Shown here in pieces: positions 7,861 to 58,339 of a stretch of 58,548 bases of DNA. Origin of the DNA: a virus (taxonomy: Duplodnaviria; Heunggongvirae; Uroviricota; Caudoviricetes); IMG/VR virus record IMGVR_UViG_3300031555_007106; one strand, given 5' to 3'. The notes under the pieces were generated by a model, which was not told where the DNA came from, did no database searches, and saw nothing but the letters and a program-made list of their open reading frames with translations. Numbering within the stretch: the first letter of the stretch is position 1; every line of letters starts with the position of its first letter. Position numbers and translations under genes: made by a program.

Positions 7861-10800
7861 TTATTCGTAATTTTCTGCAAACTTGTTAAGATACTCGGCT
7901 GCTCTACGCAGTGCATAGCCCATATCTACAGGTTCTGTATTATAACAGATAGTAAATACAAAACCTACGGAATCATCAACTATATAGGCTTCAATACCTT
8001 TTTTTGCTCTCCAATGATTCATCCAATAACCATACTCGTAGCCATCGCCGGTAATTTCCTTTCTATAACGATTAGCGTCAACGATTGGTATAGGACAACG
8101 AATAAGGTCATCATCAGGTTTTTCGCAAGCCAACACGATTAACCCCTTACTTATTTCTCCTGTTTTCTTATATCGTTCATAAGCTGTTACAGTACTTGTT
8201 ACTTCAACATAATTTAAACACAATTCCTTTTCTGTTTCATTAAAATAGATAGGCTCATGTTTATCAGAACGGATTGTACCACAATAGCTTTCCCAATTAA
8301 GAATGTCATCAAGCATAGGGTTTTTCTTCATTACAGGCAAATCCTGATGTCCGTTTTCTCTTACTTCAATCCATGCGTTATATCCTGCATTTAAACAAGA
8401 TATAAGGCCTGCTAACGCCTTAGAAGGATTTGTTGTTGCGTGTGTCCAATTTGTCTTAAATTCCATATTCTATTCCTTTCTCACATAGCCTTTTGGCTGT
8501 ACTTTGATTTCGTAAAAAAGTCCATTATATAAACCGAACGCAAATCATTGTCTCTTCCGAATTGCATCGCTCCGTTCCCAACCCAGTTGGGAATCTTGAA
8601 CTTTTCACAATCTTCCATTAAGTCTTTTAATGTAATTTCAGCTGTTTGCACGATTTCTTCATCAGGAGAAGATTCTTTTCTCTCTTTAGTGAGTATGTAA
8701 GACCAAAATATAAGACCTTTTATTGCCTCTTCTATTTTGTAATCGAAATACTCATATTCAAGCTTTCCGCAATATAATTTCATATTTTCCCTTTCTAAGC
8801 CGGTATAAGCTTTCTTATCTGTTCTGCAATTTCCTTATAAATAATGCGAGGTTCATTAATTTCATCCTTAATATCGACAGAAGAAAAATGTTTGTTTATG
8901 GTATCGCATAATTTTGCAAAATATTCATCAAGATGTGGAGGAGTCCACGTATCACTCCTACAAAGAAAAATTGCATCAAATTTCTTTTTTGAAAGTCTTT
9001 TGACAGAGCTATATAATCTATTTTGCAAATCATATTCAGCAAATAAATCTTCAATTCCGTACATTTTCAATGAAATTGGGTTATGTACCCACGCAAAGTA
9101 AGTCATTAGTTTTAATGCATTGCGTTCTTCCATAATATAGCCAATCCAATTTCCGCAGTCTAAACCTTCATTTTCGTTTATCATGTCATGATGGAGGTCG
9201 ACATTATAAATATATAATTCTTCTCCTTTAGACAGATTTTCGTTAATAAAGTCGTAGATATTTACATGACTGTTAGCTATCATTACAGGAATATCGGATT
9301 TTTGTTTCGACAGTAGGCTTATAAGCGAATTGTATTCGTCATTTAAAAGACCGATTTTTTTCAATTCATCACCATCAGCAGCATAATGATTTCCCCATAT
9401 AATTTCAGAAAGGTATGTGGGATTGTCTACACCATCAGGACATAAACTAATCTGCTCTTTTGTGACATTCTGAAAATAATCAAAGTCGATACTTAAAATT
9501 TTCATATTACTTCACCGTCTTCCACTCCTTCTACATAGCCATATTCAAGTAAATCAAGCGCAAAATCAATACCCTCTTCATCAACATCACTCGTAAAAAG
9601 AGCCGCTTGTTCTTCTGCAGAAAGACCATCCTTTCCTCTTGAATAATTCATATTGTCGTTAAGAATTTCCGCTTTAATTACATAAAAAAGCGTTTCGAGT
9701 GACAATGTAGCGGTTATTAAGCTCATACTTGAAGAAGTTTTCCATTCATCGCAAGAAAACAAAACAAAGATTACCGGTTTTTCCATTTTACTTTCTCCTT
9801 TCACTGAGCCACTCCATCTCTAACAATTTCCACATAGCCGTTTTCAAGATTACAAAACACAAAATTTTCACCTTTGTTTGCGTAATCTTCGTTAAACATT
9901 TTCAACTGTTCTTTCTGGGTAGCTTCATCATTTCCCTTTTTGTAATACATAGAAGATTTTTCGATTTCTGCTTTGATTAAACTTTTCATTCTTCTTGGAG
10001 AAAAGGTTGCGCCAACAAGTCGCATACTCTCTGGACTTTTCCATTCATTACAGGAAAACAAAACATAAATATATTTTCTTTTATTCACTCTTTATTCTCC
10101 TTTCATCCAACCGTTTCATATTTGTCAGAAAATCGAAACCGATGATTTCTCCCATCTGTTCCACAACGGCAACATCAACCCGGAAAGAATTTGCAGCTTC
10201 GGTATCCTTAGCCCATTCAATAGCCTCCTCTAATGTTCCCGTGAAATCCTGAATCCAGTTACCGCTAACGCTGCCATCCTTTTCTTCAGAAACATTTATT
10301 AAGGAAAATTTCATATTACCCTTCCTTTCTTATAGCTTATTCCATTCATTTACAATTTCTGTTAACACTTCTTCGGGATAAAGGTTATCCGATGTACCAT
10401 ATCCACCTATATTTACATACTGGTCATTAACAAAAATGTTGTAAATGTAAACTTCCTTTCCTTCTTCGTTTTCTTCAAAACTGATACCTAAACTCTTTGT
10501 ATCTCTTGCACGGAATAAAATGTAGAATTCTGTAATTCCCTTATTCTTTTCAAGTTCTGCAAAGGAAACACAACGTTTAATTATCTGTTTTAAATCTTCC
10601 GCTGAAAGAGTTTCGTTAAGATAACGCATATTGCGATTTCCGTTATACGACCAGTCTTTAACATAAGACGGATTGGAAATTCTTTTTGCTTCTCTTACAG
10701 CGTCTTTACCTTCGTTAAAAACACTTTGAAAGAGAAGATTTGATTTTTCTTTTATTCGTCGCAATCTTGTGCTTGTGTAGACATCTACATTATCGAAGGT

Positions 10801-14949: not shown

Positions 14950-15024
14950 TGGAGCAAGCAACGGGAATTGAACCCGCATTTCCTGCTTGGGAAGCAGATG
15001 TATTGACCATTATACGATACTTGC
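14950..15024 (-). tRNA. tRNA-Gly(CCC)
   Basis: GCAAGTA acceptor, TCTGC-TTCCCAA-GCAGG anticodon arm, GGTTCAATTCC T-loop, encoded CCA; 75 nt. Confidence 0.92.
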
Positions 15025-15281: not shown

Positions 15282-15441
15282 CTCAAATTCAGTTTTACAG
15301 TGTATGTTACACGTATAATCTCGTACGGACTACTAAGTACGAGGTTTTCTGACCTATAAAGGCCAACCTTTGCAAGAGTGGAACTCCGGCGTTAATAAAC
15401 GTCTTACAGGTCCTTCTCGCTCTAAGGGTGCAAAGCCACCC
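15282..15441 (-). ncRNA. tracrRNA-like element A (Cas12f type), fused to array A
   Basis: ~160-nt sequence conserved in six copies. 5' hairpin GGGTG-GCTTTG-CACCC, anti-repeat near the 3' end, ends ATTTGAG at the first repeat. Confidence 0.82.
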
Positions 15442-15464
15442 CGACTACGACTTTATGCCGCTAT

Positions 15465-15540
15465 TGGTTGGGATAGTGGGATTTGAACCCACAAAATCCT
15501 TATCATAACAACAAAACAAAATTATTATAACAGTATCCCA
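15465..15540 (-). pseudogene. tRNA-like element: intact acceptor stem, T-arm and CCA, with D/anticodon arms replaced by one AT-rich hairpin
   Basis: TGGGATA...GTGGG-TTCAAAT-CCCAC-TATCCCA-A-CCA; 76 nt. Confidence 0.75.
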
Positions 15541-15591: not shown

Positions 15592-15713
15592 CTTTTACCT
15601 ATTCAGTATCTATACGGTCTACTATGTATAGAGTTAACCTTTGCAAGAGGATTTTTCAGCGTTTAAATAACGTCTTACGAAAATTGCCTCGCTCTGAGGG
15701 TGCAAAGCCACCC
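15592..15713 (-). ncRNA. Divergent, shortened tracrRNA-like copy with no array
   Basis: Keeps GGGTGGCTTTGCACCC, GAGCGAG, GTAAGACGTT and CTCTTGCAAAGG. Compensatory stem CTATAC/GTATAG. Lacks the anti-repeat. Confidence 0.7.
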
Positions 15714-15771
15714 ATAATTTATTCTACTTTATTATGCTTGCTTTACTACATTTGGAGAGTTATATTGCCCG

Positions 15772-16002: not shown

Positions 16003-16162
16003 CTCAAATTCAGTTTTACAGTGTATGTTACACGTATAATCTCGTACGGACTACTAAGTACGAGGTTTTCTGACCTATAAAGGCCAACCTTTGCAAGAGT
16101 GGAACTCCGGCGTTAGCAAACGTCTTACGGGTCCTTCTCGCTCTGAGGGTGCAAAGCCACCC
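16003..16162 (-). ncRNA. tracrRNA-like element B
   Basis: Near-identical to element A; abuts the first repeat via ATTTGAG. Confidence 0.82.
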
Positions 16163-16185
16163 CGACTACGGCTTTATGCCGCTAT

Positions 16186-16372
16186 TGGTTGGAACAGCAG
16201 GTAGTAACCCTATATGTTCCAATATAAGAGAATGCTAACCACTCAGGTGAAAAAAAGGTGTGTTATGATACCTTATCAAGACCTGCCAAAGACATTCTCA
16301 TGCGACACCCTATGTGCCGCTTCCAAGCATAAATAGGAGCGTTGGCTACCCAACAGCAAAGTTAAACTATGC
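16186..16372 (-). ncRNA. Unrecognised structured RNA ending in a CCA-tipped minihelix (copy 1 of 3)
   Basis: Homologous to 53891-54066 and 57957-58155, with compensatory stem changes. Confidence 0.65.
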
Positions 16373-16465
16373 GAACTCGTATTAAACTTTGGTTTCAATG
16401 TGATTTCATAAAAAAACAATCACAAGTATTATAATAGTGCAAGCATTACAATACTTTTGTTGCAC

Positions 16466-20545: not shown

Positions 20546-21898
20546 TTAATCTTCGTTGTTTCCACTTGATTTCAAAAGTTCGTCAATATCCTTAATAAGA
20601 AGAGCCGGAAGAACATCCTTATCCGCATCAAAAACATGACCGCAAGAAGAACATTCATATGTCACAACATCTTCTTCTGTATGTCTTTCACAAGTTGCCG
20701 TCATACACTGAGAGCACCATTTTCTCAGGCCTTTGTATCCAACTTTAATGACCTTGATTCCGTGTTCCTTTGCCTTATATTCGATTTTCTGAGTTAAGTC
20801 AAAGTAAGACCAATCCTTTAAGTAAACATTCTTCTGAAGTTCAGATGACGCAAGTCCGGTTAAATCCTCAAGCTGAATAGTTCCGCAATTATTCTTGATA
20901 GCCCATTCAATGATAGCTCTTGAGTATCTGTGATTGACCGTATTTCTAAAATTCGTAACAGCTTCACTTATATGATTGCGAGCTGACATCTTTCTCTTGA
21001 ACCCTCTTCCAAGTCTTCCGTCCCCGCATAAGGGTGAATCCTTGTAAGCAGCTTGTCCTATGTTAGCACGTCTGGTCTCAATTCTATCACTGAATCTCTT
21101 GATTTCCTTCCCTTCAATTGTCATTACACGAGAAGAATTGCTGAATGCAGCCATAACAGCATTGTGTTCACCGATATGTACGCCCATAATATTTTCTGCA
21201 TCAAGCTCTGTATTAACATCCTTAGTGAATGTATAAGAAAGAAGAAGATACCACTTGCCATCTTCATATACAAGCTTACTTCCGGAAATCTTGTATTCTT
21301 TATCATAACATCTTTCAAGAATTGTCCATACCGAGTTTTTCGCCTTTGCCGGAGCGACCATTATAAACTTAAGACGGGTATCCTTGAGATTATACTTCTG
21401 CATTCCCTTTCTGGATAACAAAGAAAGAGTAACATACCAATCCTTGATACCACCGTTCGGCTCTTTATCAAAACTAATGGCAATGGATTTATTGTGAAGT
21501 TCCATAGGCATTCCTCTTCTGTAGGAAGGAATCGACATATCTCCTCTCAACATATCCTTTTCTCTTTTCTTGAATGTGTTCATTACATTCTGGATTACTG
21601 AACCGAGATTTCGTGTACTCTGAAGGCAGAATTCACCGCTCATTTCCCTATAAAGCAAGCTCTGAAGATTTGTACTGCTTCCGGTCATTTCTTTGATTTC
21701 ATCCTTTGTTTTAGGGTAATCGCCGTGTGTTTCCTTCCACTTAGCCTTAGCTCCATCATACTCCCAGATTAACTGAACTGCACGATTAGCGGCGTTTCGG
21801 GTTTCGTTCTGCAAATCCCATAACATTCGATTCAATTCCTTGAATTCGATGATGTCATCATTCACAGAGATTAACTTCAATTTTACTACTTTTGTCAT
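20546..21898 (-). CDS. cas12f: Cas12f/TnpB-family RNA-guided protein, predicted nuclease-dead (450 aa)
   Basis: Resembles AsCas12f1 as I recall it along its length (LRGDMSIPSYRR, YVTLSLLS, NFRNTVNHRYSR, CGTIQLEDL, DLTQKIEYKAKEHGIKV, CxxC..CxxC). RuvC-I reads MGVHIG instead of GxDxG. Start at 21898 behind AGGAGG. Confidence 0.88.
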   Translation of the reverse strand: MTKVVKLKLISVNDDIIEFKELNRMLWDLQNETRNAANRAVQLIWEYDGAKAKWKETHGDYPKTKDEIKEMTGSSTNLQSLLYREMSGEFCLQSTRNLGSVIQNVMNTFKKREKDMLRGDMSIPSYRRGMPMELHNKSIAISFDKEPNGGIKDWYVTLSLLSRKGMQKYNLKDTRLKFIMVAPAKAKNSVWTILERCYDKEYKISGSKLVYEDGKWYLLLSYTFTKDVNTELDAENIMGVHIGEHNAVMAAFSNSSRVMTIEGKEIKRFSDRIETRRANIGQAAYKDSPLCGDGRLGRGFKRKMSARNHISEAVTNFRNTVNHRYSRAIIEWAIKNNCGTIQLEDLTGLASSELQKNVYLKDWSYFDLTQKIEYKAKEHGIKVIKVGYKGLRKWCSQCMTATCERHTEEDVVTYECSSCGHVFDADKDVLPALLIKDIDELLKSSGNNED

Positions 21899-21996
21899 AA
21901 TAGACCTCCTAAATTTAAATTCTATATATAGTATGAAAGAAAAAACGTAAAAAAAATAAACTTTTTTTATTCTCACACACGTATTTTTAAAAAGCG

Positions 21997-53718: not shown

Positions 53719-53890
53719 TAAAGAGTAAAGCATATAAAAAATCGTGTGTGAGAATGAAAAAAGTTTATAATTTTTTTGTTTTTTTCTATCATACTAAATA
53801 TGTAGTCAGTTATGGTCTGCTTGTACTTTTTGTGCAGTGGATGATAAATTGAATAAAAATACATTTTATTCCAAGATTTAAGACGAGTGA

Positions 53891-54066
53891 GCATAGTTTA
53901 AATCTTGCGTTGGGTCAAGCCAACACTCCTATTTATGCTTGGAAGTGATACATAGGGTATCGCACGAGAATGTCTTTGGCAGAATTTTTACCTCCTTTAG
54001 CGATTCTGAGTGGTTAGCATTCTCTTATACTGGAACATATAGGGTCACTACCTGTTGTTTCATCCA
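53891..54066 (+). ncRNA. Unrecognised structured RNA ending in a CCA-tipped minihelix (copy 2)
   Basis: Homologous to 16186-16372, with covarying stems. Confidence 0.65.
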
Positions 54067-54089
54067 ATAGCGGTATAAAGCCGTAATCG

Positions 54090-54250
54090 GGGTGGCTTTG
54101 CACCCTCAGAGCGAGAAGGACCTGTAAGACGTTTGCTAACGCCGGAGTTCCACTCTTGCAAAGGTTGACTTTTTGTAAGTCAGAAAACCTCGTACTTAGT
54201 AGTCCGTACGAGACTATATGTGTAACACACACTAAAAACTGCATTTTGAG
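54090..54250 (+). ncRNA. tracrRNA-like element E
   Basis: Conserved element; ends TTTTGAG. Confidence 0.82.
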
Positions 54251-57883: not shown

Positions 57884-57956
57884 GTTTTGCGATTTATTCT
57901 TTCATACTATATATGTAAGAGTTAAAATCTTGCATTGTCCAAAACACTTGCGAGTT

Positions 57957-58155
57957 TGCATAGCTGTGTTTTGGTTTCAGATGTTTTTTCTTTTCATCTG
58001 ATACATCCCATATGCTTGGAAGTGGCACATAGGGTGTCGCATGAGAATGTCTTTGGCAGGTCTTGATAAGGTATCATAACACACCTTTTTCCGCCTGAGT
58101 GGTTAGCATTCTTTTATACTGGAACATATAGGGTCACTACCTGTTATTTCAACCA
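57957..58155 (+). ncRNA. Unrecognised structured RNA ending in a CCA-tipped minihelix (copy 3)
   Basis: Homologous to the other two copies; a CATACTATAT promoter core lies at 57903. Confidence 0.62.
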
Positions 58156-58178
58156 ATAGCGGCATAAAGCCGTAGTCG

Positions 58179-58339
58179 GGGTGGCTTTGCACCCTCAGAG
58201 CGAGAAGGACCTGTAAGACGTTTGCTAACGCCGGAGTTCCACTCTTGCAAAGGTTGGCTTTTTGTAAGTCAGAAAACCTCGTACTTAGTAGTCCGTACGA
58301 GACTATATGTGTAACATACACTGTAAAACTGAATTTGAG
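58179..58339 (+). ncRNA. tracrRNA-like element F
   Basis: Conserved element ending ATTTGAG. Confidence 0.82.

Follow-up and report, generated by a model that had tools for sequence, protein, structure and literature searches.

In a phage genome that carries a Cas12f-like gene and several small CRISPR arrays, the locus studied here raises the question of what the additional RNA is that heads some of its guide-RNA units. The window analysed, a 58 548-nt stretch of Caudoviricetes DNA (IMG/VR record IMGVR_UViG_3300031555_007106), has ∼100 small ORFs on the same strand and resembles part of a large phage or of a comparable mobile element. It contains six small CRISPR arrays (A to F) sharing one 35/36-nt repeat; a tracr-like RNA of ∼160 nt, beginning with GGUGGCUUUGCACCC, stands ahead of each array. 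The Cas12f of the window is probably nuclease-dead. The element in question stands ahead of arrays B, E and F only, that is, in three of the six units. We asked whether it belongs to the Cas12f guide, derives from a tRNA, represents a known ribozyme or leader, or is an RNA in its own right.

Copies of the element in the window

The original prediction had placed three copies in the window, and all three were found to be present and alignable from an invariant CGAGU, 7 nt 5′ of GCAUAG, to NCCA. GCAUAG marks the start and NCCA the end of the element in copies B, E and F alike (Table 1). CM hits and folds divided it into two modules, a core of ∼150 nt and a 36-nt tRNA-type minihelix, the latter serving as a handle between the core and what follows. 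Between the handle and the tracr lies a 24-nt linker that is kept in A, B, E and F, while C and D are without it and their tracr starts directly. A tRNA-like gene fills the place of core and minihelix ahead of array A, and units C and D have neither a core nor a tRNA-like gene. A shortened and diverged tracr with no repeat behind it was also seen between arrays B and A (window 15600–15715, minus strand).

Table 1. Positions of the element, its modules and neighbouring features in the window and on two further contigs (P3 is a helix of the core fold described in the text)
Feature	Position	Strand	Basis or remark
Whole element, copy B	16186–16372	minus	alignment
Whole element, copy E	53891–54066	plus	alignment
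Whole element, copy F	57957/8–58155	plus	alignment
Core RNA, copy B	16223–16382	minus	CM R1, 150.9 bits; fold; covariation
Core RNA, copy E	53881–54029	plus	CM R1, 144.9 bits; fold
Core RNA, copy F	57948–58118	plus	CM R1, 126.8 bits; fold
tRNA-type minihelix, copy B	16186–16221	minus	folds
tRNA-type minihelix, copy E	54031–54066	plus	folds
tRNA-type minihelix, copy F	58120–58155	plus	fold; alignment
Predicted RNase P site, copy B	5′ of base 16221	minus	
Predicted RNase P site, copy E	54030/54031	plus	
Linker, copy E	54067–54090	plus	24 nt with small hairpin GCGGY-AUAAA-GCCGU; between CCA and first tracr bases
Linker equivalent, B	∼16162–16185	minus	
Linker equivalent, F	∼58156–58179		
Linker equivalent, A	∼15441–15464	minus	
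tRNA-like gene ahead of array A	15465–15540	minus	ARAGORN: tRNA-Asn, anticodon position odd
Cas12f-like gene	20546–21976	minus	PF07282 match; RuvC-I motif GVHIGEHN
Core RNA, L003a	4237–4382 of L003		ahead of tracr
Core RNA, L003b	5628–5780 of L003		no tracr or repeat after
Handle, window B, E and F	6 nt after P3		minihelix, then NCCA
Handle, C428 copy 1	7 nt after P3		minihelix, then ACCA
Handle, L003b	8 nt after P3		minihelix, then GCAA
Handle, C428 copy 2	7 nt after P3		complete tRNA-Pro
Handle, C428 copy 3	about 60 nt after P3		hairpin, then tRNA-Met
Handle, L003a	about 60 nt or more after P3		hairpin with T-arm-like stem-loop

Copies on other contigs

Five further copies were obtained, two on contig L003 and three on contig G001:C428 (hereafter C428). 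L003 is 11 kb long and encodes a Cas12f that is 67% identical to that of the window, the closest relative obtained. One of its two cores precedes a tracr; within ∼230 nt 3′ of the other, L003b, no tracr or repeat was found, and two small hairpins and an A/T-rich stretch stand there instead. C428 is a 40-kb contig binned in an Oscillospiraceae MAG. Its first copy was the one true match, next to five chance matches, of a pattern scan of species genomes, and CM R1, which was built from six copies, added two diverged ones at 63 and 70 bits (E about 1e-13; the window copies score 127–151 bits). A 23-kb part of the contig carries 29 tRNA genes, two giant ORFs come after it, and the copies lie inside the tRNA cluster beside tRNA-Pro and tRNA-Met, two of them just 520 nt apart with one tRNA between.

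Searches of C428 with the Cas12f protein, the repeat and the tracr profile gave no match, and the C428 ORFs had no match among the window ORFs at E < 1e-5. Given that relatives of its first giant ORF occur on contigs of 260–480 kb, C428 is probably part of a very large phage, and a Cas12f elsewhere in this phage is possible, C428 being a 40-kb piece of a probably larger genome. In the pieces searched, the relatives of the giant protein (L023–L026) showed no upstream tRNA cluster and no core. The Cas12f relatives of ∼50% identity (L004–L008) have arrays, with other repeats and tracrs, and no core. Among 151 family-level and 401 order-level genomes around G001, searched by CM or pattern, G001 alone matched. 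No match was found in the INPHARED phages by blastn with three different copies, four motif patterns and one tracr pattern run against IMG/VR gave chance coding matches or none, and a scan of JGI metagenomes returned three chance matches only, in coding DNA. No run containing the locus was found among public RNA runs.

The tRNA clusters of C428 and L003 seem to hold further unannotated structured RNAs. A motif around ACACCUUGUCAC occurs in long-range, non-coding stems at L012 5050–5115 and 5440–5480 (G001:C428) and at L003 5400–5560. Another unusual gene of C428 is a tRNA called by ARAGORN with a four-base anticodon (aacg; L012 1170–1243, corresponding to G001:C428:17170–17243) and with tRNA-His directly after it, which may be frameshift-suppressor-like or degenerate. 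Protein-coding genes are interleaved with the tRNAs as well: a sigma-70 region 2 protein, a methyl-accepting chemotaxis protein and a CheW-receiver fusion lie in L021 9861–15563 (G001:C428), and an MCP-signal protein adjoins tRNA and tracr units on L003. A genuine tRNA-Gly of L003 (9642–9716) ends ∼10 nt before a tracr copy (9726–9906), making this contig the second on which a tRNA directly heads a Cas12f tracr-array unit.

Fold of the core RNA

RNAalifold yielded an unknotted consensus fold with three helical domains, and every stem named in the original prediction was recovered both by this program and by folding of single copies. In the window copies, P1 (GCAUA/UAUGC) takes up an insert of 36–57 nt, longest in copy F, that forms a hairpin of its own, and a junction, UUGGAAG as read in copy B, connects P1 to P2. 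P2 is a 7-bp hairpin with a 5-nt loop, where U:A in E corresponds to C:G in B and F. P3 comprises 8 bp, its GAGAAUG/CAUUCUY strands in the window copies enclosing P4, and an asymmetric internal loop (5′ strand UCUUUGG, 3′ strand AGUGGUUAG) separates the two helices. P4 is CAGG/CCUG with a 34-nt loop in B, is alike in F, and is CAGAAU/AUUCUG with a 17-nt loop in E. Two further pairings were rejected: CGAGU/GCUUG, proposed by RNAalifold, places A opposite A in two copies while GCAU(A)/(U)AUGC is intact in all eight, and in a pseudoknot between the P2 loop and the pyrimidine tract 5′ of the P1 3′ strand, the tract of the same copy fitted no better than the tracts of other copies.

All six reading frames are interrupted by stop codons in the window copies, and the insert lengths of the copies differ by numbers that are not multiples of three. 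The sense of the RNA is fixed by its G-U pairs (U:G in P2 and G:U in P3), which would be A-C mismatches on the opposite strand, so that the element is read in the direction of the tracr. Folding energy favours this strand too, with −50.1 kcal/mol (z −1.9) for the sense and −35.8 kcal/mol (z −0.3) for the antisense strand of copy E.

CGAGU, GCAUAG, AUGC, UGGAA and AGUGGUU are invariant in all eight copies, the top of P2 (ACA..GG) is kept in seven of them, and the GG closing the 5′ side of the internal loop is kept as well. Some 35 junction and loop bases of the core are unchanging among the eight copies, an invariance that may partly reflect shallow sampling, as only three contigs contributed these copies. 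The end of P4 and the P1 insert are free to vary. In contigs of related strains from two metagenome studies, P4 reads CAGG-GAAA-CCUG or CAGG-AAAA-CCUG (around window 53982). A tetraloop, GAAA or AAAA, is thus enough to close the helix, so that P4 can dispense with its long loops and conservation falls on the internal loop. Its strand AGUGGUUAG resembles the consensus of the tRNA D-loop (A14, R15, Y16, G18, G19, A21), here forming one side of an internal loop and not the loop of a D-arm.

The motif family is more diverse in gut metagenomes than among the eight copies. One metagenome contig has the P2 variant GCAAUAU, and in some contigs positions 53915–54027 are replaced altogether. These variants, seen in contigs of four DNA runs that are fragmented pieces, probably come mostly from paralogous copies.

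Covariation and selection on structure

Out of 36 predicted pairs, 16 were changed on both sides in a MAFFT alignment of six copies. When all eight copies were considered, a small sample from three contigs (three copies from the window, two from L003 and three from C428) in an alignment fitted to the model, the number of pairs changed on both sides rose to 23 of 36. Shuffles gave 11.0 ± 2.1 such pairs, none of 500 reaching 23, and slid partners gave only 2–5. Likewise, 93.7% of the cells in this eight-copy alignment were pairing, as compared with 83.3% in shuffles and 27–46% with partners slid. Most of the covariation signal lies in P2, P3 and P4, with compensatory changes in these helices and in the hairpin of the P1 insert; P3, for example, occurs as GAGAAUG/CAUUCUC, GGGAAUA/UAUUCCU and GAAGCUG/CAGCUUC. 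The compensatory changes and their excess over shuffles support the earlier suggestion of selection on structure, and the element is a structured RNA selected for its fold.

A tRNA-type handle downstream of the core

The constant neighbour of the core on its 3′ side is a structure of tRNA type. The spacing between core and handle is 6–8 nt in at least five of the eight copies and ∼60 nt or more in others. Five copies have a minihelix in which a 7-bp stem is stacked on a 5-bp stem with a 7-nt loop, the geometry that a tRNA would have if only its acceptor and T arms were kept. In copy E, it consists of a 7-bp acceptor stem with G3:U70, a 1-nt bulge, a 5-bp T-like stem, the loop GUCACUA and a terminal UCCA. 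Copy B has an acceptor-like stem of 7–8 bp, a short inner stem, a loop and ACCA, and copy F again has G3:U70, one C-A mismatch in the acceptor stem, and ACCA.

A hairpin of acceptor and T arm with a 3′ NCCA is the classical minimal substrate of RNase P (reviewed in PMC4919913). We took such a substrate to be ∼12 stacked bp (7 of the acceptor and 5 of the T-stem) with a 7-nt loop and a single-stranded 3′ NCCA, and applied this to the 3′ module only. The minihelix form agrees with it, the folds of E, L003b and C428 copy 1 having 7(8)+5 bp and 7-nt loops; the 3′ end is NCCA in window copies B, E and F and in C428 copy 1, and GCAA in L003b.

The window minihelices have their 3′ strand, the CCA and the following 24 nt in common with the tRNA-like gene of array A, while the acceptor stem starts UGGGAUA in that gene versus UGGAACA in the minihelices. 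With 3′ strand, CCA and linker shared, each of the three window handles has the appearance of a shortened array A gene. With regard to identity elements, G3:U70 is found in minihelices E and F, accompanied by A73 in F, and copy B has G3:C70. G3:U70 is the alanine identity element of tRNA-Ala and tmRNA, and in E and F it may be a plain wobble pair.

Comparison with known RNA families

Rfam 15, at gathering thresholds and at E ≤ 10, returned no relevant family from a range that included tRNA, tmRNA, T-box, RNase P RNA, Y-RNA-type RNAs and all self-cleaving classes, in agreement with the original prediction, which had assigned the RNA to none. That prediction had also named a known tRNA or tRNA/intron remnant as the outcome that would speak against it. 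The Rfam tRNA model (RF00005) and ARAGORN matched only 14950–15024 and 15465–15540, which are neighbouring tRNA or tRNA-like genes; the three cores had no tRNA match even at E ≤ 10, and only the 36-nt 3′ module is tRNA-derived. HDV-like/theta, hammerhead, twister, pistol and hatchet ribozymes were rejected, cmscan at E ≤ 10 over both regions having found no ribozyme family. A T-box leader was rejected as well: there was no Rfam T-box match and no terminator after the window cores, and a UGG-CCA pairing is the only feature of the kind that is possible. Nor did a comparison with Y RNA and YrlA give an Rfam match, or a T-loop hairpin in the core.

In MALAT1-mascRNA, NEAT1-menRNA and the t-elements of plant mitochondria, an RNase P cut at a tRNA-like element makes the 3′ end of the upstream RNA. 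As here, a structured RNA is followed by a tRNA-like piece with no anticodon function; those systems, however, are eukaryotic or organellar and bear no sequence or fold relation to the phage element, whose handle is a minihelix or a genuine tRNA and which is followed by a tracr-array. The small RNAs rnaC and rnaD of phage T4 (species 1 and 2) are likewise members of a tRNA cluster, stable and of a function that is not known, and they lie on the tRNA strand with tRNA-like 3′ parts (a T-arm-like hairpin and a ...CACCA end) as in the phage element. Unlike it, they are single-copy, stand downstream of the tRNAs and have another fold. CM R1, run with filters off on T4 66000–76000, gave a best hit of 4.8 bits (E 2.5) that was at neither gene.

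Theta ribozymes are small multi-copy structured RNAs beside gut-phage tRNAs and are thought to serve tRNA end formation (PMC10879173). They are HDV-like double pseudoknots of ∼50–60 nt that abut the tRNA 3′ end, whereas the phage element is ∼150 nt long, lies 5′ of the tRNA-type element at a variable distance, and has neither an HDV-like match nor that architecture. The YrlA Y RNAs are modular, occur also in phages, have tRNA-mimicking parts including a D-loop-like motif, and at least one is an RNase P substrate (PMC4201824). Their T, acceptor and D stem-loops form a permuted cloverleaf joined to a Ro60-binding stem, none of which was recognised in the phage element. A published catalogue of ∼10,000 candidate viral RNAs was built from IMG/VR, and we infer that the motif is absent from it, as our four IMG/VR pattern scans gave no copy.

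Relation to Cas12f and the tracr-array units

In the window, the element lies directly upstream of the tracr-array and on its strand, with no terminator between, and the tracr core starts ∼60 nt 3′ of the core RNA, after handle and linker. The RNA had been described as always co-transcribed ahead of a tracr-array; the position and strand in B, E and F are as described, while L003b and the three copies of C428 depart from the rule. An involvement of the core in nuclease-dead Cas12f, either as an extended 5′ part of the tracrRNA or as an RNA cofactor, had been implied, and this arrangement speaks for it, as does L003, the only other Cas12f contig with the motif, where one copy precedes a tracr. 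Yet half of the window units (A, C and D) have the type V-F tracrRNA without the core that presumably shares its transcript in the others, L003b stands alone, C428 has three copies and no match to Cas12f, tracr or repeat, and the Cas12f relatives of ∼50% identity have arrays and no core. The core was also rejected as the Cas12f tracrRNA itself on account of these copies and of its chance-level complementarity to the repeat, the longest match being a run of 10 against a shuffled mean of 9.4. As cores without Cas12f, tracr or repeat matches and tracrs without a core both occur, and a predicted tRNA-type cleavage handle lies between the two, the evidence sets the element apart from the Cas12f guide. 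The implied link to dCas12f was not upheld, and a role as tracrRNA domain or cofactor is improbable.

Proposed function and alternative explanations

We prefer a reading that we regard as having about an even chance of being correct: large gut phages or phage-like elements carry, in their tRNA clusters, this element as a modular non-coding RNA in its own right, and its core is released by RNase P at the handle. The core-plus-handle unit would stand between the promoter and the guide-RNA part in three of the six tracr-array units, and a single primary transcript would give rise to core RNA, minihelix and tracr-crRNA precursor. Host RNase P would recognise the tRNA-like handle and cut on its 5′ side, so that the core would be set free as a small RNA of its own whose 3′ end is defined. 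This cleavage probably sets the 3′ end of the core; with the ∼60 nt between core and next tRNA-like structure in L003a and C428 copy 3, the end would there not lie directly at P3. After release, the core would be stable and would most likely bind a conserved host component through its invariant unpaired bases, whose number speaks for either tertiary folding or a specific partner. A partner that recognises features of tRNA is suggested by the UGG motifs and by AGUGGUUAG, which resembles a D-loop.

Against release by RNase P, the occurrence of several diverged copies per genome beside tRNA-type elements fits a cis-acting leader at least as well, and a cis-acting role on the handle, suggested by these diverged copies each lying by its own handle, is the strongest rival. 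Such a leader would dock on the adjacent tRNA-like element and so control or time handle processing as well as release of the downstream part of the transcript, with the junction UGG, or the UGGU of the internal loop, pairing with the 3′ NCCA and the D-loop-like strand contacting the T-loop. The bulge of T-boxes and the L15 loop of RNase P pair with 3′ NCCA in this way. Junction UGG and terminal CCA are indeed paired in the MFE folds of B and E, which closes a multiloop around P2, P3/P4 and the minihelix; UGG is invariant in all eight copies, most handles are tightly spaced, and several diverged copies per genome, each with its own tRNA-type element, are what a cis element would show, as theta ribozymes do (PMC10879173). 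The pairing amounts, however, to just 3–4 bp between invariant bases, which covariation is unable to test, L003b ends in GCAA and not NCCA, two copies lie ∼60 nt from the next tRNA-like structure, and the Rfam T-box and RNase P models had no match at E ≤ 10; we consider this leader unlikely. A more general proposal, that the core is a new class of RNA acting in cis on tRNA-shaped RNAs, either as a docking device on the CCA end, and perhaps the T-loop, of the neighbouring tRNA or minihelix that gates its processing, or as a new small ribozyme, appears similarly doubtful. The ribozyme, taken by itself, would be a new self-cleaving RNA that helps to process polycistronic transcripts of tRNAs and guides. 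In its favour, the RNA is compact, has several helices and keeps many junction bases invariant, and gut phages use small ribozymes beside tRNAs (theta; PMC10879173), but known families gave no match at E ≤ 10 and a ready RNase P substrate already lies at the junction. The distance to the downstream 5′ end ranges from 6 to >60 nt and that to the upstream tRNA 3′ end from 55 to 560 nt, so that a fixed cleavage site could not make mature tRNA ends, and self-cleavage would seem to have a low probability.

Two other explanations address where the copies occur. A small mobile or insertion module colonising tRNA-type genes would explain the patchiness of the element, present in some and absent from other units of one genome, and its sharing by contigs with no proteins in common. 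No terminal repeats, target duplications or recombinase were seen, though, the minihelix is a complete hairpin and not a displaced 3′ fragment of a tRNA, and paralogous copies keep their pairing through compensatory changes, which indicates selection on the RNA itself; mobility as the explanation is accordingly given little credence. In the window, a phage promoter core (CATACT...) lies 40–100 nt upstream of each copy and a long non-coding unit rich in hairpins lies downstream, a location that would suit a promoter-proximal antitermination RNA of the kind of put in phage HK022, acting on hairpin-rich non-coding operons. It is hard to reconcile with the two C428 copies that have one tRNA and 520 nt between them, with the building of arrays A, C and D without a core, and with the cores outside the window, before which there is no consistent promoter, none of the σ70-type promoters directly ahead being convincing. 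We hold antitermination to be improbable. Release at the handle or a cis-acting role upon it has more support than any of the four other possibilities, namely self-cleavage, antitermination, mobility and a cofactor role for Cas12f.

Implications for phage biology

The motif represents a well-supported structured RNA family outside Rfam 15, one that was not found in IMG/VR with four patterns or in INPHARED with blastn. Several copies per genome and many invariant unpaired bases are a signature shown by ribozymes, riboswitches and protein-binding RNAs. Its fixed partnership with the handle would add a case from a bacterial virus to the small set of RNAs that are ended by tRNA-processing enzymes. 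Natural guide-RNA operons of a Cas12f that is probably nuclease-dead start with motif and handle in the window, the same tRNA-gRNA processing layout that engineers have built by design. If it were true that the core acts on tRNA-like RNAs, it would be a new RNA device, and if it does so in cis on tRNA-shaped RNAs, large gut phages would have their own RNA-based control of the maturation of tRNAs and guide RNAs.
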